Origin: a virus
Lineage: Duplodnaviria > Heunggongvirae > Uroviricota > Caudoviricetes
Length of the DNA stretch: 42,705 nt
Reading direction: 5' to 3' (one strand)
Virus record (IMG/VR): IMGVR_UViG_2778261632_000005
Location: 1-42,705 of that record
Each line of letters begins with the position of its first letter. The stretch's first letter is position 1. The notes under the pieces were generated by a model. It saw only the letters and a program-made list of their open reading frames with translations. It did no database searches and had not been told where the DNA came from. Shown here one piece after another: positions 1 through 41,495 of this stretch. A program made the position numbers and the translations under genes.

Positions 1-1134
1 TTAATTATTAATAATTTTTATCCAATCCTTGCCTCTATCATCATGGTATCTGGCTGTTTGCTGGGGAGATTTATGCCCCAGCAGTTTTTGAGTATTTACT
101 CCCTGGTCTTCATACAGACGTTCTGCCAGAGAGCGCTGCTCGTGAAAAGTTGCAGGCGTGCCCTCACCCCATTCAATCTCTGCTTTATCCCGTGCTTTGC
201 TGAAATTCATCGTAATGGTGTTGGACTTCACCTGCGCACCGCGCTCCGCCTGCGACGTTGCCCGAAAGAAGTGGATCATATACGGGCTGACTGCATAATC
301 CCGACATCTGGCAACAACATCCCGAAGACACCAACCTATAGCATTAAGGCGCAGAGAAAGAGGGATTGCGATTTTGCTCCCGGTTTTTTCCTGAATGACA
401 TGGAGATGATCATCCCAAATATCGCTAAATTTCATTCGCGAGATATCACCTAACCGCTGGCCAGTCACCAGTGCTAACAGCATAGCATTCCCCATATACT
501 GATGTTTCTTATCCGCGATATCGAAAATCTTCTGCCACTCGTCGAGGCTAAGTCGTTGTCTGGTAATCTTGCGCCTGGGCTGTTTAGTAGCAAGGGCAGG
601 GTTGTGACCAGACGGCACTTCACCGTAGTGTTGGGCCTCTTTGAATACATCGATCAGAACTGAGCGAACAACTTGTGCCATTCTTGGTTGGCCTGCAGAT
701 AGATACTCTTCAAGAATTTGAGCAATATCCCTGACATCAACAGAAGATATCAGTTTCATTCCCGCACGTTCTTTGAGAAGTGCAACTGGCTTTGCTTTTT
801 GTTTATACGTATTCTCTTTGATATCGCCTGACGCGAATCTTTCCTCCTGAATTTTCCAGTACCGCTCAAGCCAGGTAATAGTCGTAATTGCTTTACCTCT
901 GCTGGTGGCAATCCGATCGCTAATAGCCAGAACCTGTCTTGAGCGCTGCTCGGCAAGTCTTGCGTTCGCTTCAGTAGCAATTGCTATAGCCTCCACTTCA
1001 TCAGTACCCAAGCTGTGAAATTTCCCTGTCACAGGGTGTTTGTACCTCCAATAAACTTTATTGACCTTCCGACTATAGAGTGGATAAAGGTTAGGTACTG
1101 ATACATTATTTTTACGTGGTCTCGCTGCCATCGC
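1..1134 (-). CDS. int: Tyrosine integrase, lambda Int family
   Basis: 377 aa from MAARPRKNN; C-terminal motifs resemble lambda Int (LLALVTGQRLGDI, TFHEQRSLAERLYE, LLGHKSPQQTARYHDDRG); AAGGA RBS 8 nt upstream; the ORF is open to 1197 but 1134 fits the lambda Int N-terminus and the RBS. Confidence 0.9.
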   Translation of the reverse strand, partial: AMAARPRKNNVSVPNLYPLYSRKVNKVYWRYKHPVTGKFHSLGTDEVEAIAIATEANARLAEQRSRQVLAISDRIATSRGKAITTITWLERYWKIQEERFASGDIKENTYKQKAKPVALLKERAGMKLISSVDVRDIAQILEEYLSAGQPRMAQVVRSVLIDVFKEAQHYGEVPSGHNPALATKQPRRKITRQRLSLDEWQKIFDIADKKHQYMGNAMLLALVTGQRLGDISRMKFSDIWDDHLHVIQEKTGSKIAIPLSLRLNAIGWCLRDVVARCRDYAVSPYMIHFFRATSQAERGAQVKSNTITMNFSKARDKAEIEWGEGTPATFHEQRSLAERLYEDQGVNTQKLLGHKSPQQTARYHDDRGKDWIKIINN

Positions 1135-1357
1135 TAAGGATCCTTTGCAATTTTGGTGAGTCAGATTTCTTGATAACCGGCGCAGCAAGTTCTCCAACCA
1201 ATTCCGCGTCCTCTCTAACTCTCCAGAGCCTACCTTGCTTCATTGCTGGTGGAGAAAAGAGATTTTGCTTAGCGTAACGGCGCAATGTTGAGACGCTAGG
1301 TGGATTACTTCTGTATTTATCGGTTGCCCATTCTTCAAGAGTTAACATCTGAATCAT
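1112..1357 (-). CDS. xis: Excisionase-like small DNA-binding protein
   Basis: 81 aa directly upstream of int and overlapping its start by 23 nt as in lambda xis-int; GGAGA RBS. Confidence 0.65.
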   Translation of the reverse strand: MIQMLTLEEWATDKYRSNPPSVSTLRRYAKQNLFSPPAMKQGRLWRVREDAELVGELAAPVIKKSDSPKLQRILSDGSETT

Positions 1358-3761: not shown

Positions 3762-4802
3762 TTATTGATAGTTTGCATTGGTATGTACCTGCTGAAGTTT
3801 GTGTTGTTTAACGAAGTGGGCCACTGCTTTTGACTGGCTGGCGATAATTTTTCTGTCACCTAGGTCGAGCGTGACGTTCTTACCGCGATAAATTATTGCC
3901 GAGCCGATTTCCTTACCGTCCAGCTTCACATACAGCACTTTCCCGATAATCTCTGTCGTAGGGATTGGCTGTGAAAGGCGATATGTTTCGCGAGCTTCAG
4001 CAATGGTTTTATGTTCGTCGATTATCGACAGGGCTTCAGCCAGAGCCGTGCCTTGCAAAGTGAACACGCCTTCATCGCTGATCGTCGCCATGGCCATCAG
4101 TTCCACGAAACGGCGAGCACTTTTAATGTTGAGTTCCGGAGCGATAGAACTGCGCGTAACCTTTGTTTTCCCCTGGGCGGCGGCTACGGCTTTATCGTGT
4201 TGGAGAACTTCACCAGCCTGTTCGCCAAACTCACGAACTCGGTCAACGGCAACATCAACAGACACAGCCCCTGATTTAACTTCCTGCTGAACGTCATGGT
4301 TCGCTGTGCTGAGTAGAAGAAGCTTTTCTACGGTGGCTACAGATTTGTTTACCAGCTTTGCAATCTCGCTGGTGGTTTGGTTGAAAGCATTATGAAGCTC
4401 CTGAATAACAGCAGCCTGTTCAATATCGGAAAGGGGGAGTTGGTTATTACTGGTCATGATGCGAGCCAGCCGCTGCACATCGTTACCGTTAAACGGCATG
4501 ATATGAATACGGTCTACTGGCTTACCAGCTTCAGCACAACGCGCATAGCAACGGCGACGGCGATGGCCTTCAACAACCCACACTCCACCTTCATCACGTG
4601 CGATAACCTCCAGCGGAGGAACGGTTCCACCGTTCATCAGATAGTTAAACAGGTCGTCATCTGCCTGGCGGGTGCGTTCGTCGTCTTCACGCTTGTTGAA
4701 ACCTTCACGCACGTGGATATGTTCAAGGCTGATAAACATCCCGGTATCGGTGCGCTTGATGGTCCCATCACGGGACATCTGTTTGAATGAGTTGGCGGCC
4801 AT
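3762..4802 (-). CDS. ParB-like nuclease-domain protein
   Basis: 346 aa; N-terminal ParB/Srx-like motif VVEGHRRRR; start ATG overlaps the stop of the upstream gene (TAATG). Confidence 0.7.
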   Translation of the reverse strand: MAANSFKQMSRDGTIKRTDTGMFISLEHIHVREGFNKREDDERTRQADDDLFNYLMNGGTVPPLEVIARDEGGVWVVEGHRRRRCYARCAEAGKPVDRIHIMPFNGNDVQRLARIMTSNNQLPLSDIEQAAVIQELHNAFNQTTSEIAKLVNKSVATVEKLLLLSTANHDVQQEVKSGAVSVDVAVDRVREFGEQAGEVLQHDKAVAAAQGKTKVTRSSIAPELNIKSARRFVELMAMATISDEGVFTLQGTALAEALSIIDEHKTIAEARETYRLSQPIPTTEIIGKVLYVKLDGKEIGSAIIYRGKNVTLDLGDRKIIASQSKAVAHFVKQHKLQQVHTNANYQ

Positions 4803-17398: not shown

Positions 17399-17734
17399 AT
17401 GAATTATCAGCTTGCAAAATTGTATCGCGGTGATCGTTTCTTCGGGTATGGAATAGCCGTAGGTGGCTTGCTTATTGATGGTCAGGTTTCAACGGTGGTA
17501 GAAACTGCGCCAAACGAAATGCCGAAAGTAATTGCGACATTTAATCTCAGCAATGAACATTCCGAAAAACAACCACGAATTGATTTAGACAACCCAAGAG
17601 CTTCTAACGAATTCCAGATTGTAATCCATCCAGATAAGACATTAACCGTTGAGCAGTTAGAAGAGTTGCGAGACACGGTTAAAGGATTTCTTACCAAGCA
17701 TAATTTGTCTGATGGTGGTTTATGGAAGTATTAA
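17399..17734 (+). CDS. Hypothetical protein (111 aa), first gene of the glycosyltransferase cassette
   Basis: 3' end overlaps the downstream glycosyltransferase start by 13 nt. Confidence 0.5.
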   Translation: MNYQLAKLYRGDRFFGYGIAVGGLLIDGQVSTVVETAPNEMPKVIATFNLSNEHSEKQPRIDLDNPRASNEFQIVIHPDKTLTVEQLEELRDTVKGFLTKHNLSDGGLWKY

Positions 17735-19179
17735 TAAACGGGGTGCGTTTTACACCAGAAGGCGATAACAAAGTACGTATTGGGATTGCAATCACAACCC
17801 ATAATCGGCATGAAGTGCTTAAGCGTGCCATTGAGCAGCACATGAAGCATCTTCCATCTGGTGCGCTGGTGGTTGTGATAGACGATGGATCAAGTCCTGC
17901 TGCAATAGTTCCTGATGGGGTTAAGTTGGTACGCCATGAGCAATCACGCGGCATTGTCGCCTCTAAGAACGCCAGCCTGACAGCGCTGGTGGACGCAGGG
18001 TGTGAGCATCTTTTCCTGTGGGATGATGATGCGTGGCCAATAGCTGATAACTGGCATCTACCCTACATCGAGTCACCAGAACCCCATTTGGCTTATCAGT
18101 TTCTTGACCTCGCTGGTCCACGAAAGATTAACGATATGACTGTCCTGTACAGGGATGATAAGCATATCGCTTACACCGGGCAGCGCGGCGTTATGCTTTA
18201 TTACCACCGCAGCGCCATTGATAAGGTTGGCGGCTTCGATCCGGTATACGGGCGTGGCATGTACGAGCATCCTGATCTGGCGCTTCGCATTCACAACGCA
18301 GGGTTATCGACCTGGGCGTTTGCGGATGTTGCGGGCTCTGAAAAGCTCATTCATTCGATGGATGAATACGAAGAGGGTGCGCGTTCAATTCCCCGACCTG
18401 AGTGTGAAGCGTTAGCAAAAGCTAATGCTGTTATTTATAGCGACAGACGCGATAACGGTTATACCGCATACGTTCCTTTCAGGAAACAGCGCAACGTGGT
18501 GATTACGGCATTGCTGACCAGCCAGAATGATCCACAACGTCAGGTAAGGATGAAAGCGTCTCCTGAGTTGGTTCAGGGATGGGCCACGTCTATTAGTGGC
18601 GCTGATGCAGTGGTACTGGCCGATGAGCTCGATACAGCACCGAAAGGTGCGGACCTTTTTAAAGTGTCACCTTTGTCAATGAGTCCCTATTTCGCACGAT
18701 GGCTGCATATTTATCAGTATCTGCGTGCTCATCCAGAGTATCTCCTTATCTGGTGTACTGATGGTACCGATGTCGAAATGCTTAGAGAGCCATGGGCAGA
18801 AATGCAGCCGGGTAAAATTTACGTGGGCTCAGAGCATAAGACGTATGCCGACGAATGGATGAAGTCCAATCACCACGGCAAAGCGTATAGCGAGTTCATC
18901 GAGAAGCACATTGATGAACCGCTGCTCAACGCTGGACTACTTGGTGGTAGTCGTGACGATGTAATGGAGTTTGCTCACAGGATCATCAGACAGTATTACC
19001 TGATTGAAAGCCATCATTTCTGGAGGATGGAGACAGCTCTCCCCGCGCTGGTCGATATGGGTGCTTTCGGTATGGCTGCGAAGTCATTTGGCAATAGAGT
19101 CGTTACCGGCCCTAAGGTTCATACCATTTTTAAAACTGATGGTATCGGTAAGGAGTTCGCATGGTTTCGCCACAAGTAA
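17722..19179 (+). CDS. Two-domain glycosyltransferase (N-terminal GT2-like GT-A domain, second DxD-containing domain)
   Basis: 485 aa; N-terminal GT2 pattern (IGIAITTHNRHEVLKRAIEQ, VVIDDGSS, LWDDDAWP); C-terminal half has a further acidic motif (LIWCTDGTDVE). Confidence 0.7.
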   Translation: MEVLINGVRFTPEGDNKVRIGIAITTHNRHEVLKRAIEQHMKHLPSGALVVVIDDGSSPAAIVPDGVKLVRHEQSRGIVASKNASLTALVDAGCEHLFLWDDDAWPIADNWHLPYIESPEPHLAYQFLDLAGPRKINDMTVLYRDDKHIAYTGQRGVMLYYHRSAIDKVGGFDPVYGRGMYEHPDLALRIHNAGLSTWAFADVAGSEKLIHSMDEYEEGARSIPRPECEALAKANAVIYSDRRDNGYTAYVPFRKQRNVVITALLTSQNDPQRQVRMKASPELVQGWATSISGADAVVLADELDTAPKGADLFKVSPLSMSPYFARWLHIYQYLRAHPEYLLIWCTDGTDVEMLREPWAEMQPGKIYVGSEHKTYADEWMKSNHHGKAYSEFIEKHIDEPLLNAGLLGGSRDDVMEFAHRIIRQYYLIESHHFWRMETALPALVDMGAFGMAAKSFGNRVVTGPKVHTIFKTDGIGKEFAWFRHK

Positions 19180-19754
19180 TGTTTGTGGTTATTGGTCATC
19201 ATGTTCGCCGTAAACAGGCATTGATTTTGGCTGAATCTATTGGTGCAACCCTGATGATTGATACTGATGATCACGGTGCTAACTGGAATCATCGCCGCGC
19301 GCTGGAATGGGCAGCCAATCAATCATGCCGTGTGGTAGTGCTTGAAGATGATGCTATGCCAGTTGCTGGTTTCTGCGAAAAGATTGCTGTATGGCTTGCA
19401 CGTTATCAGGATGCACTGTGTTCATTTTATCTCGGCACTGGCCGTCCACCACAGTATCAACTGGAGATAGCATCAAAGCTAATAGCAGCTGATAAGGCCA
19501 GAGCTGACTTCATTACATTGCCGCGTCTTATTCATGGCGTCTGCTACAGCGTACCTCAGCAACATATCAAGAGAGTGCTGGATAAATGGAACCACAGCAA
19601 AGCAGCAGACTATGCAGTCGGTGATGCTTACGGTGGCCCTGTTGTCTATCCATGCTACTCACTTGTTGACCACGCTGATGGACAGCCAGTAGAACCAGCC
19701 AGAGACAATCAGCCAAGAACAGAACGCCGCAGAGCATGGAGGTTACATGTCTAA
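19179..19754 (+). CDS. Putative GT-A-fold glycosyltransferase (191 aa)
   Basis: DxD-like motif VVLEDDAMP; ATG overlaps the upstream stop (TAATG); the ORF is open from 19161. Confidence 0.5.
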   Translation: MFVVIGHHVRRKQALILAESIGATLMIDTDDHGANWNHRRALEWAANQSCRVVVLEDDAMPVAGFCEKIAVWLARYQDALCSFYLGTGRPPQYQLEIASKLIAADKARADFITLPRLIHGVCYSVPQQHIKRVLDKWNHSKAADYAVGDAYGGPVVYPCYSLVDHADGQPVEPARDNQPRTERRRAWRLHV

Positions 19755-20115
19755 GTTAAAGACACTACAACCGCGCCTGAAAGCTATCGACACCCGACGA
19801 ATAAAGCCTGTCTATGGTGAGCATCGTCGAGTGAGTGGAAGCGCAAGGGTAAGCCTTAAGCGTCGTATCTATGTGCGCGACGGTGGTCACTGCTGTATGT
19901 GCAATCAAGTAGTAGACCTGCATGACAGCGAGCTTGATCACCGCATAGCACTACAGTTCGGTGGTGACAACGATGAGAGCAACCTCTGGACGCTGTGCAT
20001 TGATTGCCACTCAGGTAAGTCATCGCGCGAAGCATCAATGAACCAACCTGACAGTGAGGCTCTGAAGCACTCTGTGCCGAAAGATAAATCACAATCTGGC
20101 ATCGTAATTCTCTGA
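19747..20115 (+). CDS. HNH endonuclease (packaging-associated)
   Basis: HNH motif (CCMCN...DHRIALQFGGDNDESNLWTLCIDCH) directly upstream of the terminase genes. Confidence 0.8.
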   Translation: MSKLKTLQPRLKAIDTRRIKPVYGEHRRVSGSARVSLKRRIYVRDGGHCCMCNQVVDLHDSELDHRIALQFGGDNDESNLWTLCIDCHSGKSSREASMNQPDSEALKHSVPKDKSQSGIVIL

Positions 20116-20215
20116 CCAAACACCGGGGGGGTATCGGTGGGTGTCAACGCCGATCGCGCTGGACACCGCGCCCCCTCTCACACACAGAAAATTTTCCCCT
20201 TTGGAGGGTGTTAAC

Positions 20216-20677
20216 GTGTTAACAGGACAAAAGCGCAAATTCGCACAAGCGCTGATGTCCGGTTCATCCCAGGCTGAAGCAGCCCGAAAGGCCGGTTACT
20301 CCGAGAAAACCGCGAGGTCACAGGGTTCCCGGCTGGCAAAAGACCCGGATATCATCGCGTTTATCAGTAAAAAACGTGGGGTCGAAGTCATTGCCGAGCA
20401 GGCTGTTTCTGAACCAGATGATCTGCCAAAAGTTGTTAACAGAACGGTGAAGGAATTTGATGATCCGCTTGAGTTCCTGAAAGCAGTGATGAACGACGTA
20501 TCAGAAGAGACGGACGTCAGAAAAGACGCCGCAAAAGCGATGCTGCCATACCTTCACCCCAAAAAAGGAGAAGGCGGTAAAAAGGATGCAAGACATGCCG
20601 CCGCGAAGGTCGCAGCAACGGGTAGCAAGTTTGGAGCAATGGCACCGCCGAAGCTTGTTGTTAATAACAAGGGGTAA
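20216..20677 (+). CDS. Terminase small subunit
   Basis: GTG start with GGAGGG RBS; HTH-like N-terminus (QKRKFAQALMSGSSQAEAARKAGYSEKTA); ORF open from 20141. Confidence 0.75.
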   Translation: MLTGQKRKFAQALMSGSSQAEAARKAGYSEKTARSQGSRLAKDPDIIAFISKKRGVEVIAEQAVSEPDDLPKVVNRTVKEFDDPLEFLKAVMNDVSEETDVRKDAAKAMLPYLHPKKGEGGKKDARHAAAKVAATGSKFGAMAPPKLVVNNKG

Positions 20678-20680
20678 TCA

Positions 20681-22339
20681 ATGGCTCAATGGACCACGGC
20701 TTGCCCTGAATGGGAATCTCTTCTGGTTGCAAAGCAATCAATCATCCCACCACCAATTTTCCCAGACCAGGCAGAACAGGCACTTGGCATCTTCAAAGAG
20801 TTACGCGTCTCTGATTTACCAGGGAAGCCAACATTTGGTGAGTGTTCCGAGGAATGGGTATTTGACTTTGTTAATGCCATTTTTGGTGGCTATGAAGCAG
20901 AGACTGGTAAGCAGTTAATCCGCGAATATGGACTACTTATCTCGAAAAAGAACACAAAATCGACCATCGCTGCAGGAATTATGCTGACCGCGCTAATCCT
21001 GTGCTGGCGTGAAGATGAAGAGCACCTGATTCTCGCGCCGACAAAAGAGGTGGCTGATAACAGTTTTAAACCTGCTGCCGGGATGATACGCGCCGATGAA
21101 GAGCTGTCTGATATGTTCCAGATTCAGGACCATATCCGCACCATCACACACCGAGTAACACGAAATACACTCAAAGTAGTAGCAGCTGACACCGATACTG
21201 TTTCAGGTAAAAAGTCAGGGCGCATTCTGGTCGATGAGCTTTGGTTGTTTGGCAAGCGAGCTAATGCCGAAGCCATGTTTATGGAAGCACTTGGTGGGCA
21301 GGTATCTCGCAACGAAGGGTGGGTTATATTCCTGACTACGCAAAGTGATGAACCGCCTGCTGGTGTATTCAAAGAACGCCTTGATTACTGGCGAGCTGTG
21401 CGAGATGGGAAGATTAATGACCTTAAAACACTCGGCGTCCTGTATGAATTCCCTGACTCTATGGTGGAAAGCAAGGCTTACCTTGAACCAAAAAATTTCT
21501 ACATCACCAATCCGAATATTGGACGTTCGGTAAGTGAAGAATGGATTGCCGATCAGCTTCTGAAGAACCAGAACAAAACAGACGGCACATTACAGCAGTT
21601 CCTTGCGAAACACCTCAATATCGAAATTGGTCTGAACCTCCGCAGTGACCGATGGGCAGGTGTTGATTTCTGGGAGCCGCAAATTAGGCAGGTAACATTC
21701 AGCGATATCCTTCAGCGAGCTGAGGTTGCTACGGTTGGGATAGATGGTGGTGGCCTTGATGACCTTCTTGGTCTTTACATTATTGGTCGTGACAAAGAAA
21801 CCCGTGAGTGGATTGGATGGGGCCATGCCTGGGCGCATGAAATAGCTGTGCGCCGCAGAAAAAGCGAGGAATCCAGGTTCAACGATTTCGTTAAGGCCGG
21901 TGACCTGACTATCGTAAAACGAGTAGGACAGGACACGGAGGAAGTCGCTGAATATGTTAGCCGTATTAATGATGCGGAACTGCTGGATAAAATTGGCATT
22001 GACCCTTCTGGTGTCGGTCAGATCCTTGATGCTCTTGTAGAAGCTGAAATACCTGAAGATTCAGTGGTTGGTGTCAGCCAGGGATGGAGACTTGGTGGTA
22101 CGATTAAGACCACAGAGCGCAAGCTTGCAGAGGGTGTGCTTATTCATGGCGGACAACCATTAATGGCCTGGTGTGTAGGAAACGCCAGAGTAGAGCCAAA
22201 AGGTAACGCTATCCTCATCACCAAACAGGCCAGCGGTAAGGGTAAAATTGACCCCCTTATGGCCCTGTTTAATGCCGTTTCGCTAATGGCACTTAATCCT
22301 GAAGCGAAGAAGAAAGATTACCAGGTATTTTTTATATAA
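20681..22339 (+). CDS. Terminase large subunit
   Basis: 552 aa directly after TerS; N-terminal ATPase region and acidic nuclease-like C-terminal region (GIDGGGLDDLLG). Confidence 0.8.
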   Translation: MAQWTTACPEWESLLVAKQSIIPPPIFPDQAEQALGIFKELRVSDLPGKPTFGECSEEWVFDFVNAIFGGYEAETGKQLIREYGLLISKKNTKSTIAAGIMLTALILCWREDEEHLILAPTKEVADNSFKPAAGMIRADEELSDMFQIQDHIRTITHRVTRNTLKVVAADTDTVSGKKSGRILVDELWLFGKRANAEAMFMEALGGQVSRNEGWVIFLTTQSDEPPAGVFKERLDYWRAVRDGKINDLKTLGVLYEFPDSMVESKAYLEPKNFYITNPNIGRSVSEEWIADQLLKNQNKTDGTLQQFLAKHLNIEIGLNLRSDRWAGVDFWEPQIRQVTFSDILQRAEVATVGIDGGGLDDLLGLYIIGRDKETREWIGWGHAWAHEIAVRRRKSEESRFNDFVKAGDLTIVKRVGQDTEEVAEYVSRINDAELLDKIGIDPSGVGQILDALVEAEIPEDSVVGVSQGWRLGGTIKTTERKLAEGVLIHGGQPLMAWCVGNARVEPKGNAILITKQASGKGKIDPLMALFNAVSLMALNPEAKKKDYQVFFI

Positions 22340-22358
22340 ATAACACGTCAGTTAATGA

Positions 22359-22378
22359 CCCGCCACGGCGGGTTTTTT
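22359..22378 (+). terminator. Intrinsic terminator-like hairpin after terL
   Basis: Stem CCCGC/GCGGG with loop CACG then TTTTTT. Confidence 0.55.
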
Positions 22379-22397
22379 CGTTTCTGGAGGACAGTAA

Positions 22398-24335
22398 ATG
22401 AAGCTTGACCGCGCATGTACGATCATGACGGTGAAAGCGGTGGATGAGGACAAACGGATAATCACCGGGATTGCTTCCACACCATCACCTGACCGTGACG
22501 GCGACATTATGGACCCTGACGGTGCGAAGTTCGGTAGTGAAAACCCTTTCCTCTGGCAGCATGACAGAACCCAACCTATTGGGAACTGTTCTGCAAAGAA
22601 AGTGAAAGAAGGGCTTCAGATCACGGCGCAACTTGTTAAGCCAACACCTGACATGCCATCGCAGCTGGTGGCCAGGCTTGAAGAAGCGTGGGCATCAATC
22701 AAATCAGGTCTTGTGAAAGGCCTGTCTATCGGCTTCAAGCCAATTAAATACGCATATCTCGACTCTGGTGGCATCCATTTTCTTGAATGGGAGCTTCTTG
22801 AAGTTTCTGCAGTAACGATCCCGGCGAATGCCGAGTGTTCGATTCAAACCGTTAAATCGTTTGACCGCCAGTTACTCGCCGCGCTCGGCACTGAGAAACC
22901 GGTAGTTAAAACCATAAATTCTGCTGGCGCTTCAGCACCGAATAAATCTTCTCAAAAAGGAAAATCAACGATGAATATCGCTGAACAGATCAAAAGTTTT
23001 GAAAACAAGCGTGCAGCGCTGGCTTCTTCACTGAACGACATCATGAGCAAAGCCGCCGATGAAGGCCGCACGCTGGATGCGGAAGAAACAGAAAGCTACG
23101 ACAACACCTCTACTGAAATCAAAGCGGTCGACGAGCACCTTAAACGCCTGCGTGATATGGAAACCAGCATGGCATCAACCGCCAAGCCAGTAACTAAAGC
23201 AGCATCTGGTGAAGTTACAGTGGTGAATAACGCACCATCCATCATCCGTGTAGAGCCTAAGCTGGAAAAAGGTATTGCCTTTGCCCGTTTTGCCAAGTCT
23301 CTTGCAGCTGGTAACGGTAGCCGCTCCGAAGCGCTACAGATTGCGAAAAACCAGTATCCTGATGACACCAAACTTCATCACGTTCTGAAAGCTGCGGTAA
23401 GTGCTGGTACTACCACAGACCCTGCCTGGGCTGGTGCACTGGTTGAATATCAGGATTACGCGCAGGATTTCGTTGAGTTTCTGCGTCCTCAGACCATTAT
23501 CGGACGTTTTGGCCAGGGTAACATCCCGTCCCTGCGTCAGGTTCCGTTCAATGTTCGAATTCCGGCGCAGACCTCCGGTGGTTCTGCTAACTGGGTTGGT
23601 CAGGGTAAAGCCAAGCCTCTGACCAAGTTTGACTTCGCAACCATCACCTTCGGTTTCTCCAAGGTGGCTTCTATTGCAGTACTGACCGAAGAGTTGATCC
23701 GTTTCTCAAATCCATCTGCTGATGCTCTGGTGCGTAACGCCCTGGCTGAAGCGGTGATCGCGCGGCTGGATACCGACTTCATCGACCCGGCAAAAGCGGC
23801 AGTGGCTGATGTTTCCCCTGCATCTATTACCAACGGTATTACTGCGATTCCGTCTACTGGCGATCCAGATACCGATGCTGCAGCAGCATTTGGTAAATTT
23901 ATTACCAATAACCTGCAGCCGAATGGCGCGGTATGGCTGATGTCCAGTACTACGGCTCTCACTCTCTCCATGCGTAAAAATGCCCTGGGCCAGAAAGAGT
24001 ATCCTGACATGACCATGCTGGGCGGTACATTCCAGGGTCTGCCAGTAATTGTCTCCCAGTACGTTGGCAATCAGTTGGTGCTGGTTAATGCACCGGATGT
24101 ATACCTGGCTGATGACGGCGGTGTGGCAGTTGATATGTCTCGCGAAGCTTCTCTGGAAATGCAGAGCGCTCCGACCCATGACAGCACCACCCCAACGGCA
24201 GTGGAACTGGTATCCATGTTCCAGACCAACAGCGTGGCCATCCGTGCAGAGCGCTGGATTAACTGGAAACGCCGTCGCGATACAGCAGTGGCCGTTATCT
24301 CCGGCGTTGATTACAGCACTGGCGCTACCAGCTAA
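22398..24335 (+). CDS. Fused prohead protease (HK97 family) and major capsid protein (HK97 fold)
   Basis: 645 aa; N-terminal 170 aa resembles HK97-type prohead protease, the rest from MNIAEQIKSF resembles HK97-family major capsid protein. Confidence 0.75.
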   Translation: MKLDRACTIMTVKAVDEDKRIITGIASTPSPDRDGDIMDPDGAKFGSENPFLWQHDRTQPIGNCSAKKVKEGLQITAQLVKPTPDMPSQLVARLEEAWASIKSGLVKGLSIGFKPIKYAYLDSGGIHFLEWELLEVSAVTIPANAECSIQTVKSFDRQLLAALGTEKPVVKTINSAGASAPNKSSQKGKSTMNIAEQIKSFENKRAALASSLNDIMSKAADEGRTLDAEETESYDNTSTEIKAVDEHLKRLRDMETSMASTAKPVTKAASGEVTVVNNAPSIIRVEPKLEKGIAFARFAKSLAAGNGSRSEALQIAKNQYPDDTKLHHVLKAAVSAGTTTDPAWAGALVEYQDYAQDFVEFLRPQTIIGRFGQGNIPSLRQVPFNVRIPAQTSGGSANWVGQGKAKPLTKFDFATITFGFSKVASIAVLTEELIRFSNPSADALVRNALAEAVIARLDTDFIDPAKAAVADVSPASITNGITAIPSTGDPDTDAAAAFGKFITNNLQPNGAVWLMSSTTALTLSMRKNALGQKEYPDMTMLGGTFQGLPVIVSQYVGNQLVLVNAPDVYLADDGGVAVDMSREASLEMQSAPTHDSTTPTAVELVSMFQTNSVAIRAERWINWKRRRDTAVAVISGVDYSTGATS

Positions 24336-24342
24336 GAAGGAG

Positions 24343-24360
24343 GGCGGGGGAAACCCCGCC
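24343..24360 (+). other. GC-rich stem-loop with GAAA tetraloop downstream of the capsid gene
   Basis: GGCGGGG-GAAA-CCCCGCC, perfect 7-bp stem; no strong U-run. Confidence 0.6.
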
Positions 24361-24367
24361 GTTTCAT

Positions 24368-24538
24368 ATGGCAAAGATCAGATACCTACAGCGTACACAT
24401 GACTCATTGCCAGGTGATGAGAAAATTGTGAATGACCAGTGCGCAAAGGTACTGGTTCTGCTGCATAAAGCTGAATATGTGACTGGCAAAAAAGCTGGTG
24501 GACCGAAAAAGAAAAAAGTTAACGCGGAGAATGGCTGA
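24368..24538 (+). CDS. Small basic hypothetical protein (56 aa), absent from the supplied ORF track
   Basis: Found by manual translation (MAKIRYLQRTHDSLPGDEKIVNDQCAKVLVLLHKAEYVTGKKAGGPKKKKVNAENG); stop overlaps the portal ATG; no clear RBS. Confidence 0.4.
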   Translation: MAKIRYLQRTHDSLPGDEKIVNDQCAKVLVLLHKAEYVTGKKAGGPKKKKVNAENG

Positions 24539-25890
24539 TGTGGAATCCTTTTAGTCGGAAAGAGAAAGCACTACAGCAACCATCATCTCGCGGCTGGACT
24601 CCGATATTTTCCTTTGTCAGAGAACCTTTCGCAGGTGCCTGGCAAAGAAACATGGAAATCAGGAATGAGACCGTACTTTCGTATTATGCGGTGTTCTCTT
24701 GCATTACGCTGATAGCCAGTGACATTTCAAAGATGTCGCCAGCCATTCAGGCCAAAGATTCTAACGGCATCTGGAAAGAAGTTTCGGATAATGAATTCGA
24801 CACACTAATCAGTAAACCTAACCAGTTTCAGAACACAATTCAGTTTTTTGAAACGTGGATGAATTCAAAACTTTCTCGCGGAAATACCTACGTGATGAAG
24901 GTTAAAAACAATACCGGGAAGATTACAGAACTTCGTATTCTTGATCCGGATAAAGTCACACCCTTAGTTGCTGATGATGGTTCTGTTTTTTATCAAATTA
25001 GCCCTGACCAGATTAGCGGTTTGCCGACACAAGTAACCGTTCCGGCGCGAGAAATAATTCACGATCGCTTTAACTGCCTATTTCATCCTTTGATCGGTAT
25101 TTCTCCTATCTATGCATGTGGACTCGCAGCAATGCAGGGTAAGCACATCCAGGAAAGCTCTGCGTTCTTCTTTAAAAATGGCGGCAAACCAAGTGGCGTT
25201 ATTACTATTCCTGGCTCTGTTGATGCTGACAAAGCCACAGAAATAAAAAAAGCATGGGATGCAGGTTACACAGGGGAAAATGCAGGAAAGACTGGACTGT
25301 TATCAGGTGGCGCAGAATACAAAGCGATCACCATGTCTGCGGTAGATGCGCAGACTGTTGAGCAGCAGAAACTCTCTGCAGAAATGGTTTGTTCTGCCTT
25401 CCATGTCCCGGCATATAAGGCTGGCGTTGGCGAAATACCAAGTTCTGATAACGTTGAAGCACTTGAACAACAATATTACTCACAGTGCCTGCAGGTGCTG
25501 ATTGAGTCTATCGAGTCACTCTTGAAAGAAGCTTTCGAACTGGATGCCAAAAAGCGTGTTGAGCTTGATATCGGCGCGCTGTTACGAATGGACAGCGAAC
25601 GCAGAATGAAAGCGCTGGGTGATGGAGTTAAAAACACCATCCTTACTCCAAACGAAGCCCGTAAAAGTGAAAACCTTCCTCCTGTTGAAGGTGGTGATTC
25701 TCTCTTCCTGCAGCAGCAGAACTTCAGCCTGGCAGCGCTGGCCAGGCGCGATGCATCAGAAGACCCATTCGCGAAAGGGACGCAACAGCCGCAGACAGCG
25801 ATTGCACCTGTTGATGAAAGTGGAAAGACGCTAAGTGAGACTGAACTTTTCGCGGCGAAAACAATGCTCAGAGGATTATTAACAAAATGA
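24538..25890 (+). CDS. Portal protein, HK97 family
   Basis: 450 aa; composition and C-terminal pattern (LTPNEARKSENLPPVEGGD) consistent with HK97-type portals. Confidence 0.7.
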   Translation: MWNPFSRKEKALQQPSSRGWTPIFSFVREPFAGAWQRNMEIRNETVLSYYAVFSCITLIASDISKMSPAIQAKDSNGIWKEVSDNEFDTLISKPNQFQNTIQFFETWMNSKLSRGNTYVMKVKNNTGKITELRILDPDKVTPLVADDGSVFYQISPDQISGLPTQVTVPAREIIHDRFNCLFHPLIGISPIYACGLAAMQGKHIQESSAFFFKNGGKPSGVITIPGSVDADKATEIKKAWDAGYTGENAGKTGLLSGGAEYKAITMSAVDAQTVEQQKLSAEMVCSAFHVPAYKAGVGEIPSSDNVEALEQQYYSQCLQVLIESIESLLKEAFELDAKKRVELDIGALLRMDSERRMKALGDGVKNTILTPNEARKSENLPPVEGGDSLFLQQQNFSLAALARRDASEDPFAKGTQQPQTAIAPVDESGKTLSETELFAAKTMLRGLLTK

Positions 25891-26771
25891 ATGAACGTGA
25901 ATTATCCCTGATTAAAGCGCTTGGTGAAGAGTTTGGAGCAGCCATTAAAAAAATGGCAGATGACTTTCAGCAAGCGCTGGAGAAAACAGCCAGTAATCTG
26001 GAGAAGCAACTGGAAGAGGTTCGTCAATCAATTCCAGAATTCCAACCAGTAGAAATACCAGATGTATCTAAAATGGTTGCCGATGCTGTAAGTGAAATTG
26101 AATTACCGAAGGCTCCAGAACTACCAGACTTGAACCAGATTATCGCCGATGCTGCCAAAAGCGCGGTGAAGCAGGTTTTTGAATCAATTCCAGTACCCAA
26201 GGATGGTAAAAGCGTCACGGTTGATGATCTGCGTCCCCTTGTCGAAGAGGTAGTTAATGCGTTAATTCCTGAGCCGGTAGATGTTGAAAAGCTCGCTCAG
26301 GATTTGTTGTCAAAGATTCCTGATCCTGAACCTGGTTCAGATGGTCGTGACGCTCTTGCAATAGAGCTTGAACCATTCATTGACGAGAAAAAAAGCTATC
26401 CACGCGGTACCTATGCGACTCACAAAGGCGGCCTTTGGCGCGCCCATGAAAAGACGCACGGCATGCGGGGCTGGGAATGTATTGTTGACGGTGTGTCTGG
26501 CATTGATATCAAACAAGATAACCAGCGAACCTTCTCAATTTCTCTCGAAAGAGCAAGCGGAACTGTTGAAGTTAAGTCCTTTGACATCCCGGTAACTATC
26601 TATCGCGATGTATTCAAATCTGGTACCGAATATCAACCTGGCGATACGGTCACATGGGGTGGTTGTATGTGGCATTGCAACGAGAAAACCTGCGACAAGC
26701 CTGGTGAGACAGGATCAAAAGGATGGACGCTTGCTGTTAAGAAAGGGCGAGATCTGAGGGATAAACCATGA
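25887..26771 (+). CDS. Hypothetical head-region protein (294 aa)
   Basis: Coiled-coil N-terminus, Pro/Glu-rich linker, Cys/His-containing C-terminal domain (WGGCMWHCNEKTCDKPGE); ATGA overlap with the portal stop. Confidence 0.5.
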   Translation: MNERELSLIKALGEEFGAAIKKMADDFQQALEKTASNLEKQLEEVRQSIPEFQPVEIPDVSKMVADAVSEIELPKAPELPDLNQIIADAAKSAVKQVFESIPVPKDGKSVTVDDLRPLVEEVVNALIPEPVDVEKLAQDLLSKIPDPEPGSDGRDALAIELEPFIDEKKSYPRGTYATHKGGLWRAHEKTHGMRGWECIVDGVSGIDIKQDNQRTFSISLERASGTVEVKSFDIPVTIYRDVFKSGTEYQPGDTVTWGGCMWHCNEKTCDKPGETGSKGWTLAVKKGRDLRDKP

Positions 26772-27094
26772 TTGAACTGGTTACGCTCGAAGAAGCTAAA
26801 TTGCATCTCCGTATTGATGACGACTATGGAGATACTGATCTTACCTTGAAAATTAAGGGCGGCAGTGCGGCGATCCTTTCTTACATCCAGGGGAGTCGCG
26901 CGCTAATCGTGGGTGATTCTGGAAATCTTATCGATGGTGAGCCGCTTACTCGCGTTCAGACAGCCCTGTTGGTTCTGCTTGGCTATCTGGACCGTAACCG
27001 CGGCGGCGAAGAAGAAGAAAAGTTGAAACAGGGAGAGCTTCCTTTTTCTGTATCAATGCTGATTTACGACCTCCGTAAGCCGACAATTATTTAA
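26768..27094 (+). CDS. Head-tail connector protein (gp6-like)
   Basis: 108 aa, N-terminal LEEAKLHLRID pattern typical of gp6-like connectors. Confidence 0.6.
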   Translation: MIELVTLEEAKLHLRIDDDYGDTDLTLKIKGGSAAILSYIQGSRALIVGDSGNLIDGEPLTRVQTALLVLLGYLDRNRGGEEEEKLKQGELPFSVSMLIYDLRKPTII

Positions 27095-36417: not shown

Positions 36418-38514
36418 ATGACCACTTATAACACCGGCAATCCGCTGGGGTCTGCTGCTGCAAAAGATTTATACGATAACGCTCAGAACTTTGATCATCT
36501 GTCGAATGATCTTGAAAATGAGATGTGGCCTGACCGATTTGGGAAGAGCAGGTTAACTTGGCATGGAATGGAAAAAAGATACCAGGAAAAGCTGGTGTCT
36601 ATGGGGTGGGAACTGATTGATTCATTTCAGGGAGGAACTACGTTAACGAGGGCAGATCAGGCGTTGCGTTGGGAATTACCTGATGGGGATGGAGAGTATT
36701 ACCGCTGGGATGGCTCTCTGCCTAAAACAGTCCCTGCCGGTTCTACACCAGATTCAACAGGTGGTGTTGGCACTGGCGCATGGGTTGGAGTTGGTGATGC
36801 ATCTCTTAGATCTGATCTAACAAAATATGGTGCAACGGTTGACCAGATAGCGCATCGGGTTACAACACTGAAATCTTTTGAAGAGTTTGGTGCGATTGGA
36901 GATGGGGTTACTAATGATACAGCCTCGATGCTGGCAGCGCTGGAATGGCTGAAAGATGTCCCTTTCGGTAAATTGGTTGGCAGACCTGGCGCAAATTATC
37001 TAATCACACAAAGCCTCGTCATGAAATTTGACGGCTCATACACTCAAGATGTAACGTCAACTCGCTATCTGGATTTTACTGGGACAGTGATTGTGGCAGG
37101 CGCCGATAATATCACTTGCATTCGCATGAGCCATGATTTCTGCCATATCATCAATCCTGTAGTAATTAACCCAAATAACTATTCCGACGTTATCGCCTAC
37201 GCTATTGCACCAGAAACCGAATCTCAGACTACCATACGCGTGTCACAGCAATTCTGTGTAATGGAGAATCCACGAGCACGGGGAACTAAGATAGGCCTTA
37301 AGTTTAAACCAGGGCCTACAGTCGGTGGGAGTAATAGCGGTGCGTATTACCACTCAATTATGAATCCTAATTTTGAGAGAGTGGATTGCGGATTCTATTT
37401 CGAGCGCAGCGTAAGCGGAGACAATAACAACACAAGGATTCATATCTTCAATCCAGTTCATATAACCGGTAACTGTGCTTTTTGGATCGAAAGCACTGAC
37501 TCACTACGCGTTTACGGTGGATCATGTGAAAATATCACATTGGGAACCTGGCCGGCTGACGTGCCATGCGCAGTCCGTGTTGTAAAAACAGTAAGCACAG
37601 ATACACAGGTCGCTGGAAACCTACATTTCTACGGATATCTTGGAGAAGTTTGTCACAGAGCCTATCAAATAGATACAAATGTAGGAACCTACGAAAACTA
37701 CTTTGATTGGAAATGGGTATTAATTAATGAAAACCCATATCGCGCACCAGGACAGGATGGGAATTTCGTAGCACGATTTGATGGGGAAATTCTTAGTAGT
37801 AGCTGGGACAACAGTGCTCTTAACGTAGTAGGGTGTAGAAACCCACATACAGGACATCAGGCAATAATCATCCAAAATCCAGATGAGACGCCAGCAGAAC
37901 TTTGGAGTAATACTGGGTGGAAATTTACCGCAACAATTTACGATTGCCCGGCACAAAATTTACAACATAGTAATAGCCATGAACAGATATTAGGGGCATT
38001 GTATGCTGGATTGACGCTTACAACCTATCCTGATAGCAGGAGAATAATGTTAACAAGCAAGGAGGGGGCTGATGGGGTTGAGAGACCACAAAATGATCTG
38101 ATAATTAATGGATTTAACAGGCTATGTGCAGAAAATGATAATGATACCGCTCTTGGTGATTCTGATAGACGGTGGAGTGTTGTTTATGCAGCTACTAGTT
38201 CAATAGTTACATCTGATGAGGAGCATAAAACCTCTTTTCTATCAGATGATAATACTTTAGAAAGAGAGAAGAAGGCAGCTAAGGAAATTAAAAGCTGTAT
38301 ATTTCGGTATAAGTTTAAAAAAAGCATTGATAAAAAAGGAGAGGGGGCCCGTCTTCATTATGGAGTGGGGGCGCAAACTGTTGGCGAAATTATGAGGAAG
38401 TATGACCTGAATCCGGATAATTATGCTTTTTGGTGCAGAAACAAAACAAATGAAGGCGATAGGTATGGTATCAGATACGAAGAGTTAATTATGTTTCTGA
38501 TGGTTAACGCATAA
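36418..38514 (+). CDS. Tailspike / side tail fibre with C-terminal intramolecular chaperone-like domain
   Basis: 698 aa; central region looks like a beta-helix depolymerase domain; C-terminal 110 aa resembles peptidase-S74 autoproteolytic chaperone domains (TSSIVTSDEEHKT ... GARLHYGVGAQTVGEIM ... YGIRYEELIMF). Confidence 0.6.
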   Translation: MTTYNTGNPLGSAAAKDLYDNAQNFDHLSNDLENEMWPDRFGKSRLTWHGMEKRYQEKLVSMGWELIDSFQGGTTLTRADQALRWELPDGDGEYYRWDGSLPKTVPAGSTPDSTGGVGTGAWVGVGDASLRSDLTKYGATVDQIAHRVTTLKSFEEFGAIGDGVTNDTASMLAALEWLKDVPFGKLVGRPGANYLITQSLVMKFDGSYTQDVTSTRYLDFTGTVIVAGADNITCIRMSHDFCHIINPVVINPNNYSDVIAYAIAPETESQTTIRVSQQFCVMENPRARGTKIGLKFKPGPTVGGSNSGAYYHSIMNPNFERVDCGFYFERSVSGDNNNTRIHIFNPVHITGNCAFWIESTDSLRVYGGSCENITLGTWPADVPCAVRVVKTVSTDTQVAGNLHFYGYLGEVCHRAYQIDTNVGTYENYFDWKWVLINENPYRAPGQDGNFVARFDGEILSSSWDNSALNVVGCRNPHTGHQAIIIQNPDETPAELWSNTGWKFTATIYDCPAQNLQHSNSHEQILGALYAGLTLTTYPDSRRIMLTSKEGADGVERPQNDLIINGFNRLCAENDNDTALGDSDRRWSVVYAATSSIVTSDEEHKTSFLSDDNTLEREKKAAKEIKSCIFRYKFKKSIDKKGEGARLHYGVGAQTVGEIMRKYDLNPDNYAFWCRNKTNEGDRYGIRYEELIMFLMVNA

Positions 38515-38558: not shown

Positions 38559-39995
38559 TTAGAATCTAATAACTACAATATTATCAACGAGATATATTGC
38601 AAATACATTACCTGCATATAAGGTGGTTTTGTCATTTGCTTTTAGTAAAATTTCATCACGTTTATCATTATTTGCATAGGTAATATCATTTAGCCCGTTC
38701 CTCATTAAAATAAATCTTCCACCATCATAACCCCAAGAAAATGTGTCAAGCATCATGTTATTCATGAATGGATAAATGTTAATGGTTGACTCCATGACTC
38801 CAGAATGTTGTGGGCGCCCATCAATAATAAATTCTTTATGCTTTGATAAATTCAACCTGTCAAGATTACTCACTATCCTGGTTGCTAAAGATTCTGCATA
38901 TCTAAAATCTTCTCGCACTGCATTTGTAGATGCACATAAAAAAAGATAATTAGTAAAGTAAAAAAATACCGCTGGCGCAAGCCATAGCCATTTACGTTTA
39001 AAAGAACAGCACAACGCATAAAGACAGAAGAAGGATGCAGCAGAAATCCCTATAATTGTTCGTGGTATGATTGATGGATTTTGCCCATACACTCCAACTC
39101 CTGGTATAAACGTGACAAGTGCACATAAAACAATAACTATCGTCAGAAAGGTAAATAATGGTTTTGTTGATCTAAAGCACATAACGCATACAGCAACAAC
39201 AAACGCAGCGCACATGATTGCAATCGGGTATAAAAATGGTGAGTCTAGTAGTTTTAAAATGAGTATGTATGAGTTTTTGTAATTATTAAGAACTGTTTCA
39301 AGTCCCGAATAAGTCAATGGAACGATTTTATTGAAATTCAAAAAGTAATAACTTACATTAGTTATTGGGATAATAACTTTAAGGTATGCTATAGTGCCTA
39401 AAAGAAATGTTAAAGCTCTAATTATCAATACTTTGGTTATGTTTTTATAATTTTCTTTTTTTACATAAGCTCCCATGAATATCTCAATAGCGGATAGACA
39501 TATAAATAGTGCTATTGCAGCTTGGTAAAGAGAAAGGCTGGCAACAAGAGCCGTTACTGACAAAACAAAAGAAGATATTTTGTTAGTGTGTAAAATATAA
39601 GGCGTAATTGCCATGGTTACAGATAGAACCATAAAGAAGGAATCATATCTGAATAATAAATTAGAAACAAAAAAAGGAGATGCTAAGAAGCATAAAGATA
39701 GCACTATTGCTTTAATCCCTTTGCTCCCTATAAAGTATTCACATACTTTTAAAGATACTGCACTATAAAGGATTAATGCCAGAATTGTCATTCCTGGGAA
39801 GTAGTCAGGAAGAACATCTCCTGTAGTAATTGTTCTATATATAGCTTCTGCAAGAGGTCGTCCATCTCCTTGCCATCCATAATATGACCATACCGACCTA
39901 AATATGTCGTCATTATAATAACTAGTTCCTAACAGTAATGGAATGGCATAAAATAATGTCAGTCCAGCAGCAATAACTATATGTCTATTAGGCAT
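38559..39995 (-). CDS. Serotype-specific O-antigen glucosyltransferase, GtrC-like polytopic membrane protein
   Basis: 478 aa, about 10 predicted TM helices, strongly AT-rich coding sequence, immediately downstream of gtrA-gtrB. Confidence 0.75.
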   Translation of the reverse strand: MPNRHIVIAAGLTLFYAIPLLLGTSYYNDDIFRSVWSYYGWQGDGRPLAEAIYRTITTGDVLPDYFPGMTILALILYSAVSLKVCEYFIGSKGIKAIVLSLCFLASPFFVSNLLFRYDSFFMVLSVTMAITPYILHTNKISSFVLSVTALVASLSLYQAAIALFICLSAIEIFMGAYVKKENYKNITKVLIIRALTFLLGTIAYLKVIIPITNVSYYFLNFNKIVPLTYSGLETVLNNYKNSYILILKLLDSPFLYPIAIMCAAFVVAVCVMCFRSTKPLFTFLTIVIVLCALVTFIPGVGVYGQNPSIIPRTIIGISAASFFCLYALCCSFKRKWLWLAPAVFFYFTNYLFLCASTNAVREDFRYAESLATRIVSNLDRLNLSKHKEFIIDGRPQHSGVMESTINIYPFMNNMMLDTFSWGYDGGRFILMRNGLNDITYANNDKRDEILLKANDKTTLYAGNVFAIYLVDNIVVIRF

Positions 39996-39999
39996 GATA

Positions 40000-40920
40000 T
40001 TACCTCTTATTCTTCTTTATAAGATATTTTGGCCTTTTTTTGGTTTCTAAATATATTCTACCAATATACTCACCAAGTACTCCAATTCCTATTAATTGAA
40101 TTCCACCAAGAAACAGAATAGACACTAGCAGGGATGGATAGCCCCGTACGGCGTTACCAAACGCTAAAGTGTTGAATATCATCCAGGCGCCATACAAAAA
40201 AGCGCAACCGGCTACCACTAGCCCAATATACGTCCAGATGCGAAGCGGGAAGGTCGAGAAAGAAGTTATGCCTTCTAGTGCTAAATTCCATAGTTTCCAG
40301 CCATTAAATTTTGAGTCTCCGGCAACACGTTCAGCTCTTGCATACTCAACAACATCAATTTTCCCACCAACCCATGACAAAACACCTTTCATGAAGAGAT
40401 TGCGCTCAGGAAGCAGTTTGATGTTTTCAACAACTTCGCGTGACATCAGGCGAAAATCACCCACGTTCTCTTCAATTTTTGGGTTGCTAATTTTGTTGTG
40501 TAGCTTGTAGAACCACTCAGCAGATTTGCGCTTTAGCCTTCCATCGGTAGAGCGGTCTGTTCTTTTAGCCAGAACCATATCAGCGCCATCCTGCCACTTA
40601 GCAATGAGGTGCGGGATGACATCGATAGGGTCTTGCAGATCAACATCGATTGGGATGACTGCTTCGCCGGTAGCATTATCGAGACCTGCGAATAGGGCAG
40701 GCTCTTTACCAAAGTTTCTGGTGAAAGATAGAGGTACCACCAATTTGTCAGAGACAGCAAGTGCATTGATGATGGATTCTGTTGAATCGCTGCTCCCGTC
40801 GTTAATAAATACAATCTCAATGTCGTACTCTTTTAGGCCTTCAAACTCGCGTACCGTTTTATAAAATATAGGTATTGTGGCCTCTTCGTTAAAGACCGGA
40901 ACAACTAAAGAAATTTTCAT
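40000..40920 (-). CDS. gtrB: Bactoprenol glucosyltransferase GtrB (GT2)
   Basis: 306 aa; GT2 motifs ([24 protein letters not shown]) and two C-terminal TM helices. Confidence 0.85.
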
Positions 40921-41279
40921 TTCGCATCCCTAAAGACAATGAATTTCGAGTAAATAAATCCGCATACCAAGCTGATCGCGGAAAAAGCAACCAGGGTGAC
41001 AATAGGTGGGAGTGCGCACAAATCAGCCCCCCAGCCAACAGCAGCGCTTAATGATCCCATAAAACCGACATATAACATGTAGCGCAGCATTGTTGTCGAT
41101 GAATTGAATGTGAATTTGGCATTGGCATAAAAACTGAACGATACAGCTACGGCAAATCCAGCCAGGTTCGCTAGAGCCTGATTTGTGTGCAATACGTAGA
41201 TGCAGATTGCAAACACAACCCAGTGGATAAGCGTATTGATGATGCCGATAGATGTGTACTTAGCGAATAGCTTTAACAT
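40917..41279 (-). CDS. gtrA: GtrA flippase-like small membrane protein
   Basis: 120 aa from MLKLFAKYT, 4 predicted TM helices; stop overlaps the gtrB start; ORF open to 41342. Confidence 0.8.
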
Positions 41280-41495
41280 TATAAAAATCAGTGAATTCTT
41301 AGAGGCCGAAAGTTTAGCATTTGAAAGTGGATCGATCGACATATCATGTTAATTTGGTGAGACAAAAACGGGATACACAAAGCTTTGCATCGGTTTGCAA
41401 GGCTTTGCAGTGCCCACCTATGACACATTCTCATGAAGAGCTCAGCAGTAATTATTGATAGGCAGCGCCGCATTGATCTGCAATCATTTTAAAAC

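Follow-up and report, generated by a model that had tools for sequence, protein, structure and literature searches.

An Escherichia coli prophage head module with a fused prohead protease-major capsid gene and a candidate internal capsid start

In phage HK97 the prohead protease and the major capsid protein (MCP) are encoded by separate genes, and the protease enters the procapsid non-covalently. How might a phage control the amount of protease in its procapsids when the two proteins are joined in one reading frame? This question is raised by a head module in IMG/VR virus record IMGVR_UViG_2778261632_000005 (Caudoviricetes), whose entire 42,705 nucleotides (nt) are called the window here. An original prediction, made from the DNA letters alone, described a single gene of 645 amino acids (aa) that combines protease and capsid domains, followed by a 56-aa gene and the portal gene. 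In our analysis the best explanation overall, to which we assign a probability of roughly 80%, is a head cassette in which the protease gene has lost its stop codon, the capsid gene has retained its start, and two products would be made from the fused frame.

All three open reading frames (ORFs) of the original prediction were confirmed on the plus strand (Table 1), and its central statement, that the 645-aa ORF carries an HK97-type protease domain followed by a capsid domain, was borne out by profiles that score above their cutoffs for both parts. Pfam PF04586 (Peptidase_S78) matches residues 49-153 with 41.4 bits against a gathering cutoff of 21. The prediction had suggested an alignment to HK97 gp4, and this gave 31% identity by BLASTP (E 5e-9) with His55 opposite His65 and Ser110 opposite Ser114, in keeping with a protease of the gp4 type. 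His65 and Ser114 are the catalytic residues of gp4. The NCBIfam equivalog model TIGR01543 scored 50.2 bits, under its cutoff of 59; by these profiles the protein is an S78 family member according to Pfam, but not a gp4 equivalog by the NCBI rule. Among the best 150 representatives at 50% identity or less, counting those that cover each site, His55 is conserved in 144 of 144, Ser110 in 143 of 144 and Glu135 in 142 of 144. Because these residues are conserved among such diverse representatives, the protease is very likely active. A different reading would make the N-terminal domain a dead protease that is kept as an extra scaffold, with maturation carried out by another protease. The TIGR01543 score below the equivalog cutoff fits that idea, but the Pfam S78 score exceeds its threshold, His55, Ser110 and Glu135 persist in 99% or more of the diverse relatives, and the head module contains no second protease gene. 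We therefore rejected the dead-protease reading as very improbable.

The capsid domain is recognized by TIGR01554 (major_cap_HK97; residues 203-584, 77.6 bits against a cutoff of 27.5) and by PF05065 (Phage_capsid; residues 385-634, 54.3 bits against a cutoff of 24.2). The alignment to HK97 gp5 that had been proposed alongside the gp4 comparison failed: BLASTP gave E 1.8 and hhalign, with a 70-sequence profile, E 0.29, so that pairwise similarity to gp5 is not significant. When the family profile was compared with the PDB, only capsid proteins were matched, the best being 9d9w (E 1.9e-17), with 8gta, 9gyi, T5 5tjt and 80alpha 6b0x also among them. The HK97-family relationship of this domain is thus visible only through family profiles and matches to solved capsids. 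In the colinear but non-significant hhalign alignment, Lys406, Asn611 and Glu618 lie opposite gp5 Lys169, Asn356 and Glu363. All three are near-invariant, each being at least 90% conserved in the alignment of relatives, and their equivalence to the HK97 cross-link residues is suggestive only.

We also examined an AlphaFold2 model, which was built from a shallow alignment of 24 sequences that are 81-99% identical and is poor overall (mean pLDDT 40). It contains a beta-rich N-terminal domain, a disordered linker at residues 164-193, and long helices at 194-221 and 228-260 with pLDDT 74-79. In the profile comparison, positions 197-273 were matched to residues 4-78 of 9gyi, a major head protein of solved structure (E 4.9e-9). 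From the model and this match, we read helices 194-260 as a probable delta-type scaffolding domain. Taking the two parts of the protein together, we are close to certain that the ORF is a fused S78 protease/HK97-family capsid gene.

A fused frame could also arise as a sequencing artefact or as a pseudogene decaying in a defective prophage. The window is indeed an integrated E. coli prophage, whose 6.6-kb head region matches the chromosome of strain PCP07014 at 100% identity, and fused and unfused relatives can differ by a single stop codon. However, the identical 645-aa ORF is present in two independent complete E. coli chromosomes, and PHROG 617, a family of full-length fusions, matches residues 1-639 to profile positions 7-626 of 626. 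The best 120 protein clusters all encode proteins of 644-647 aa with both Pfam domains; at least 120 clusters, therefore, are full-length fusions, and they span Salmonella, Enterobacter, Serratia, Klebsiella, Hafnia and other genera of the Enterobacterales. One of these fusion clusters is carried by each of at least 1000 contigs. Full-length fusions also make up about 130 of the best 150 representatives at 50% identity, within a total of 1319 representative clusters at E<=1e-30, and in 117 phage records the match extends over at least 80% of the fused protein. Of 5426 complete E. coli genomes, 976 contain a match to the module, and a single genome can have up to seven such places. Isolated phages (BP-4795, FSL SP-016, 1717 and 2851) carry the fused gene as well, and its catalytic and capsid residues are under clear purifying selection. 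The independent genomes, isolated phages and many clusters effectively refute the artefact or pseudogene reading, whose probability we consider negligible.

The same evidence bears on how unusual the locus is. The original prediction had set the fusion and the gene order apart from the HK97 layout, and the departure from that layout is real; the unusualness it implied is not. The fused gene and the same order are annotated in FSL SP-016, BP-4795, 1717, 2851, JLK-2012 and a Rhizobium phage (50% identity). In BP-4795 the genes in question are ORF56-58, and ORF56 is labeled 'putative major head protein/prohead protease' in GenBank. A polycistronic transcript, EVP-1, from a particle-forming siphovirus shows the same gene order (PMC8156552), and fused protease-capsid genes have been described in Arthrobacter, Rhodococcus and Rhodobacter phages (PMC5513430; PMC8601537). 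The fused gene and the portal-after-capsid order are thus already known and common, and have been annotated for years.

To place the fusion among its relatives, we compared 243 related loci from IMG/VR and GenBank, about 45 of which have separate protease and capsid genes. One such unfused locus (L188) has the order TerL, S78 protease, capsid, 56-aa ORF, portal. Because the unfused relatives share this order, the position of the portal gene after the capsid gene is a trait of the lineage as a whole, not of the fusion. In HK97 the genes run in the order small terminase subunit (TerS), large terminase subunit (TerL), portal, protease, MCP, and the predicted difference in order from HK97 holds. 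In L188, at 3976-4588, conserved N-terminal residues ('IASTP...') are found in the protease frame upstream of the first listed ATG/GTG/TTG.

In unfused relatives the protease ORF closes only a few nucleotides away from the capsid ATG, in most cases with a TAA that forms part of the Shine-Dalgarno (SD) sequence of the capsid gene (TAAGGA), as in ...cTAAGGAttacgtATG. The equivalent place in the window reads ...aAAAGGAaaatcaacgATG, with AAAGGA instead of TAAGGA, and where the frames agree the fused and unfused states differ by that stop codon only. Because the TAA of the unfused relatives sits at the equivalent place within the SD, the fusion is the loss of the protease-gene stop codon, from TAAGGA to AAAGGA.

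If the stop codon alone was lost, the capsid gene's own start signals would now lie inside the fused ORF, and we find such signals at Met192, in the linker region that marks the former gene boundary. The linker is the most variable part of the protein in alignments. Met192, by comparison, is invariant in nine sequences down to 50% identity. Across 143 diverse fused representatives, a Met occurs 3-8 residues before the conserved Glu196 in 127 and a Val in 11 more, against a background Met frequency of 1.8%. Four representatives that encode the MCP alone start at the Met192 position or within a few residues of it. At the DNA level, 128 of 129 unique contexts have a start codon at the site (119 ATG, 5 GTG, 4 TTG). 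An SD core, defined as AGGA, GGAG or GAGG, lies 5-17 nt upstream in 52 of 54 enterobacterial-type contexts (96%) and in 30 of 39 divergent fused contexts (77%); the background is 6% at other codons and likewise 6% at other internal Met codons. In GC-rich lineages the internal SD is a strong GGAGG with a duplex energy of -10 to -12 kcal/mol, which places it in the top 0.3-1% of ORF positions. The RNA around the internal start is predicted to be unstructured.

These signals seem to be maintained at the nucleotide level. The SD motif is kept in different codon phases, where it encodes Lys-Gly, Lys-Glu or Glu-Gly. The codon for Gly188, which lies within the SD, is GGA in 110 of 110 sequences, whereas GGA accounts for 9% of Gly codons in these ORFs. 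In a set of 111 unique enterobacterial coding sequences, codons 166-195 show a synonymous entropy of 0.06-0.4 bits, compared with about 1.2 bits elsewhere; for this calculation codons were mapped via the protein alignment, as gap-free anchoring on the internal ATG is uninformative owing to linker indels. The persistence of the motif across codon phases, together with the rare-codon and synonymous constraints, speaks for selection acting on nucleotides at the internal start. The fused gene thus appears to contain a conserved internal start of the lambda C/Nu3 type, in frame and with its own ribosome-binding site.

The synonymous trough, which takes in codons 151-195, reaches about 120 nt upstream of the internal ATG (22848-22970), and GCCGCG (22878-22883) and GCTGGCGCTnCAGCA (22923-22937) are invariant within it. 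Three readings of this trough are conceivable: an RNA element, constraint on a cleavage site, or a linker for recombination where the two genes once met. Around the internal start RNAalifold found two short hairpins of 3-4 bp with one compensatory change and a covariation term of -0.45. The compensatory pair change, GCUG/CAGC to GCCG/CGGC, is found in BP-4795. This covariation is too slight, and we do not claim a structured RNA element at the internal start.

How would such a gene be used? We propose that ribosomes would start both at 22398, giving the 645-aa protease-capsid fusion, and at 22971, giving a 454-aa capsid protein. The two products would co-assemble through their identical delta and capsid parts, and each fusion subunit would thereby bring one protease into the procapsid interior. 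The protease would then cut off itself, the linker and the delta domains, after which the shell would expand, probably with cross-linking as in HK97. The two-product step, in which the MCP is made alone as well as in the protease-MCP fusion, is on balance the probable one. That the fusion chain serves as a carrier subunit, and that the ratio between the two initiation sites determines how many proteases a procapsid receives, we favor slightly less strongly, at a little better than even odds. Lineages could switch between this nested mode and separate genes by mutating one stop codon inside the SD. A literature search found no description of a nested two-product gene for this protease-capsid family.

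Several considerations weigh against this proposal. Literature searches for expression or N-terminal data on the products of the module returned nothing specific, and a CBASS preprint deals with another fusion. The enterobacterial internal SD is weak, since AAGGA gives -5.6 kcal/mol and ranks only in the top 4-15% of ORF positions; the strong upstream GGAGG could make the full-length protein the major product, and internal initiation could be blocked by ribosomes that are elongating across the site. Nor are the related loci independent of one another phylogenetically. An exchange of Met for Val is also conservative in the protein, and the use of GTG in all 3 of the fused Val cases carries little weight. 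Finally, the synonymous trough is longer than an SD requires; a small RNA hairpin, or a linker for recombination where the old genes met, may account for it instead.

Several of these points would suit a single polyprotein of the kind made by phage P2, whose gpO is produced as one full-length protease-scaffold protein. All subunits would then have the arrangement protease-delta-capsid and would process themselves or their neighbors, and the internal SD and ATG would be relics or would be kept by toggling between fused and unfused states. The upstream GGAGG is stronger than the internal AAGGA, and by a rough estimate 415 copies of an N-terminal part of about 30 kDa would fit a T=7 procapsid. 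In addition, fused and unfused states coexist in the lineage and differ little, which makes relics plausible. However, almost every fused lineage has kept the start and SD, even at identities as low as about 35-50%, and this in the most variable segment of the protein. The persistence of the motif across codon phases, the rare codon and the synonymous constraint likewise point to selection at the nucleotide level. We therefore regard the single polyprotein as possible but unlikely, and prefer the head cassette with a retained capsid start and two products.

Known assembly systems offer parallels for either arrangement. In lambda C/Nu3, HSV-1 UL26/UL26.5 and HFTV1 gp17/gp17.5, a long product with an N-terminal protease has a shorter partner that is made from an in-frame internal start, and covalent attachment brings a little protease along into the procapsid. 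In those three systems the C-terminal part common to both products is a scaffolding protein in its own right, whereas in the present gene it would be the capsid protein, which contains its own delta scaffold. The use of two products has been demonstrated for lambda, HSV-1 and HFTV1, but is inferred from sequence for the present gene. P2 gpO resembles the fused protein in that an N-terminal protease is covalently joined to an assembly domain and processes itself; it differs in lacking an internal start and in not being fused to the capsid protein. The same architecture as in the window occurs in independent lineages, namely in the 'major capsid and protease fusion protein' of actinobacteriophages (Arthrobacter clusters AM, AU and AN; Rhodococcus RRH1) and in Rhodobacter RcC phages; it has been published there and its name serves as an established annotation term. 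NF045541 (scaf_prot_MCP2 fusion) scored 41 bits against a cutoff of 525, with a match to the protease and linker region only, and represents a different fusion lineage. HK97 shares with the window an S78 protease with aligned His and Ser, an HK97-type portal and a TIGR01554 capsid protein with an N-terminal helical delta-like domain; in HK97, however, the portal gene precedes that of the protease.

The closest counterparts are the modules of Stx-converting siphophages, namely the Stx1 phage BP-4795 (Marienburgvirus, ORF54-59), the Stx2 phage 1717 and phages 2851 and JLK-2012, and of the Salmonella phage FSL SP-016, which have the same series of TerS, TerL, fusion, small ORF, portal, portal-associated ORF and gp6-like connector. 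The fused protein is 72-83% identical to its counterparts in the Stx phages and FSL SP-016, with FSL SP-016 at 83%. Only sequence divergence and the repeat number of the ORF after the portal distinguish these modules from that of the window, which belongs to a different, non-Stx E. coli prophage with a gtrABC cassette.

Table 1. Features of the packaging and head module, in window coordinates.
Feature	Position	Strand	Basis
HNH endonuclease gene; opens the packaging/head module	19747..20115	+	PF01844 E 5e-7; same position in FSL SP-016
TerS gene	20141..20677	+	PF03592 E 1e-8; phrog_641 E 7e-51
TerL gene	20681..22339	+	TerL_ATPase and TerL_nuclease domains; phrog_9 E 2e-126
GC-rich hairpin, then T-run, between TerL and fused gene	22357..22380	+	Terminator scan
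SD GGAGG of full-length fused ORF, 7 nt before ATG 22398	22386..22390	+	Read from sequence
Fused prohead protease/MCP ORF, 645 aa	22398..24335	+	phrog_617 full-length, E 4e-223
Peptidase_S78 protease domain, about aa 1-160	22398..22877	+	Pfam; BLASTP to HK97 gp4
Catalytic residue His55	22560..22562	+	Alignment to gp4
Catalytic residue Ser110	22725..22727	+	Alignment to gp4
Linker, aa 161-191, former protease/capsid gene boundary	22878..22970	+	Varies in residues and length; invariant codons
Internal SD-like AAGGAA; AGGA core 9 nt before ATG 22971	22957..22962	+	In all 83 close loci
In-frame internal ATG, Met192; putative start of 454-aa capsid-only product	22971..22973	+	Conservation
Delta-domain-like scaffolding segment, two long helices, aa 194-260	22977..23177	+	AlphaFold helices; 9gyi match
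Capsid body, about aa 290-645, boundary approximate	23265..24335	+	PF05065; TIGR01554
Hairpin, 7 GC pairs, directly 3' of fused ORF; weak T-tail	24343..24360	+	Terminator scan
Conserved 56-aa ORF between capsid and portal; stop overlaps portal start codon	24368..24538	+	phrog_829 E 7.5e-22
HK97-type portal gene, 450 aa	24538..25890	+	PF04860 E 1e-76; TIGR01537 287 bits
294-aa ORF; start overlaps portal stop (ATGA)	25887..26771	+	phrog_1289; positions 704-857 of 859-position phrog_2271
gp6-like head-tail connector gene	26768..27094	+	PF05135 E 4e-6

The fused gene is bordered by two GC-rich hairpins. The upstream one resembles an intrinsic terminator (fold energy -17.3 kcal/mol, z -2.1), and the same element is present 5' of the fused gene in FSL SP-016 and BP-4795. 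The downstream one has a fold energy of -22.1 kcal/mol (z -4.1), and in HK97, too, a putative terminator follows gp5 at the corresponding place. Hairpins thus border the fused ORF here in the way they border the gp4-gp5 unit of HK97. Three ORFs that overlap the capsid gene (23706-24374 and 23600-24070 on the minus strand, 24049-24402 on the plus strand) are without a PHROG match and were taken as chance ORFs.

The 56-aa ORF lies between the capsid and portal genes as predicted and is conserved. It was found in 220 of the 243 related loci, unfused ones included, and is annotated in FSL SP-016, BP-4795 and the EVP-1 transcript; PGAP did not call it in the identical region of E. coli PCP07014. 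This conservation argues that it is a real gene. Divergent versions have the C-terminal motif 'YKRRDMxAE' in common. The portal gene follows it, 3' of the capsid gene, again as predicted, and its product is 26% identical to HK97 gp3 (E 4e-21). The start of TerS is placed later by PGAP, at about 20216.

The 294-aa ORF after the portal encodes a conserved downstream partner of the portal protein that is joined to it in some phages, as phrog_2271 is a 'portal' profile whose C-terminal part corresponds to this ORF. It is 47% identical to BP-4795 ORF59, from which it differs in repeat number. A central tandem repeat of varying copy number is present in this ORF, which is 294 aa long here, 347 in FSL SP-016 and 461 in BP-4795, and the C-terminal 150 aa or so are conserved between phages. 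Pfam and PDB searches with the 294-aa ORF gave no match above threshold (CBM_5_12 was sub-threshold). Canonical HK97 gene order resumes at the gp6-like connector.

Essentially all of a lambdoid prophage is contained in the window. At the left edge (1-1197, minus strand) lies the gene for a lambda-type integrase that has an Arm DNA-binding domain. Near the right end (36418-38514, plus strand) a tailspike is encoded, with TSP1/Gp66 as its N-terminal domain and an S74 intramolecular chaperone at its C-terminus. The right end of the prophage carries genes for a GtrII glucosyltransferase (38559-39995), a GT2 glycosyltransferase (40000-40920) and a GtrA-like flippase (40917-41342), all on the minus strand. 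This gtr cassette (38559-41342) lies in a low-GC stretch (0.35-0.40) and constitutes a serotype-converting module for modification of the O antigen. Immediately before the HNH and terminase genes, an ORF for a 485-aa GT2-like glycosyltransferase and a 197-aa ORF occupy 17722-19754 (plus strand); the pair is also present in FSL SP-016.

A protease-capsid fusion followed by the portal gene is an ordinary arrangement, a standard head module that many Stx phages and enterobacterial prophages share. For annotation, it matters that PGAP labels the fused ORF "phage major capsid protein" without naming the protease part, so that the protease is hidden, and the conserved 56-aa gene is skipped. For the evolution of these phages, the locus offers a clean case of two assembly genes merging or separating through one stop codon inside a ribosome-binding site. 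The conserved internal start provides a testable hypothesis for protease dosage when the protease is fused to the capsid protein. If the two-product mechanism is true, it would extend the logic of lambda C/Nu3 and UL26/UL26.5 to a system in which the capsid subunit itself, and not a separate scaffold, delivers the protease.

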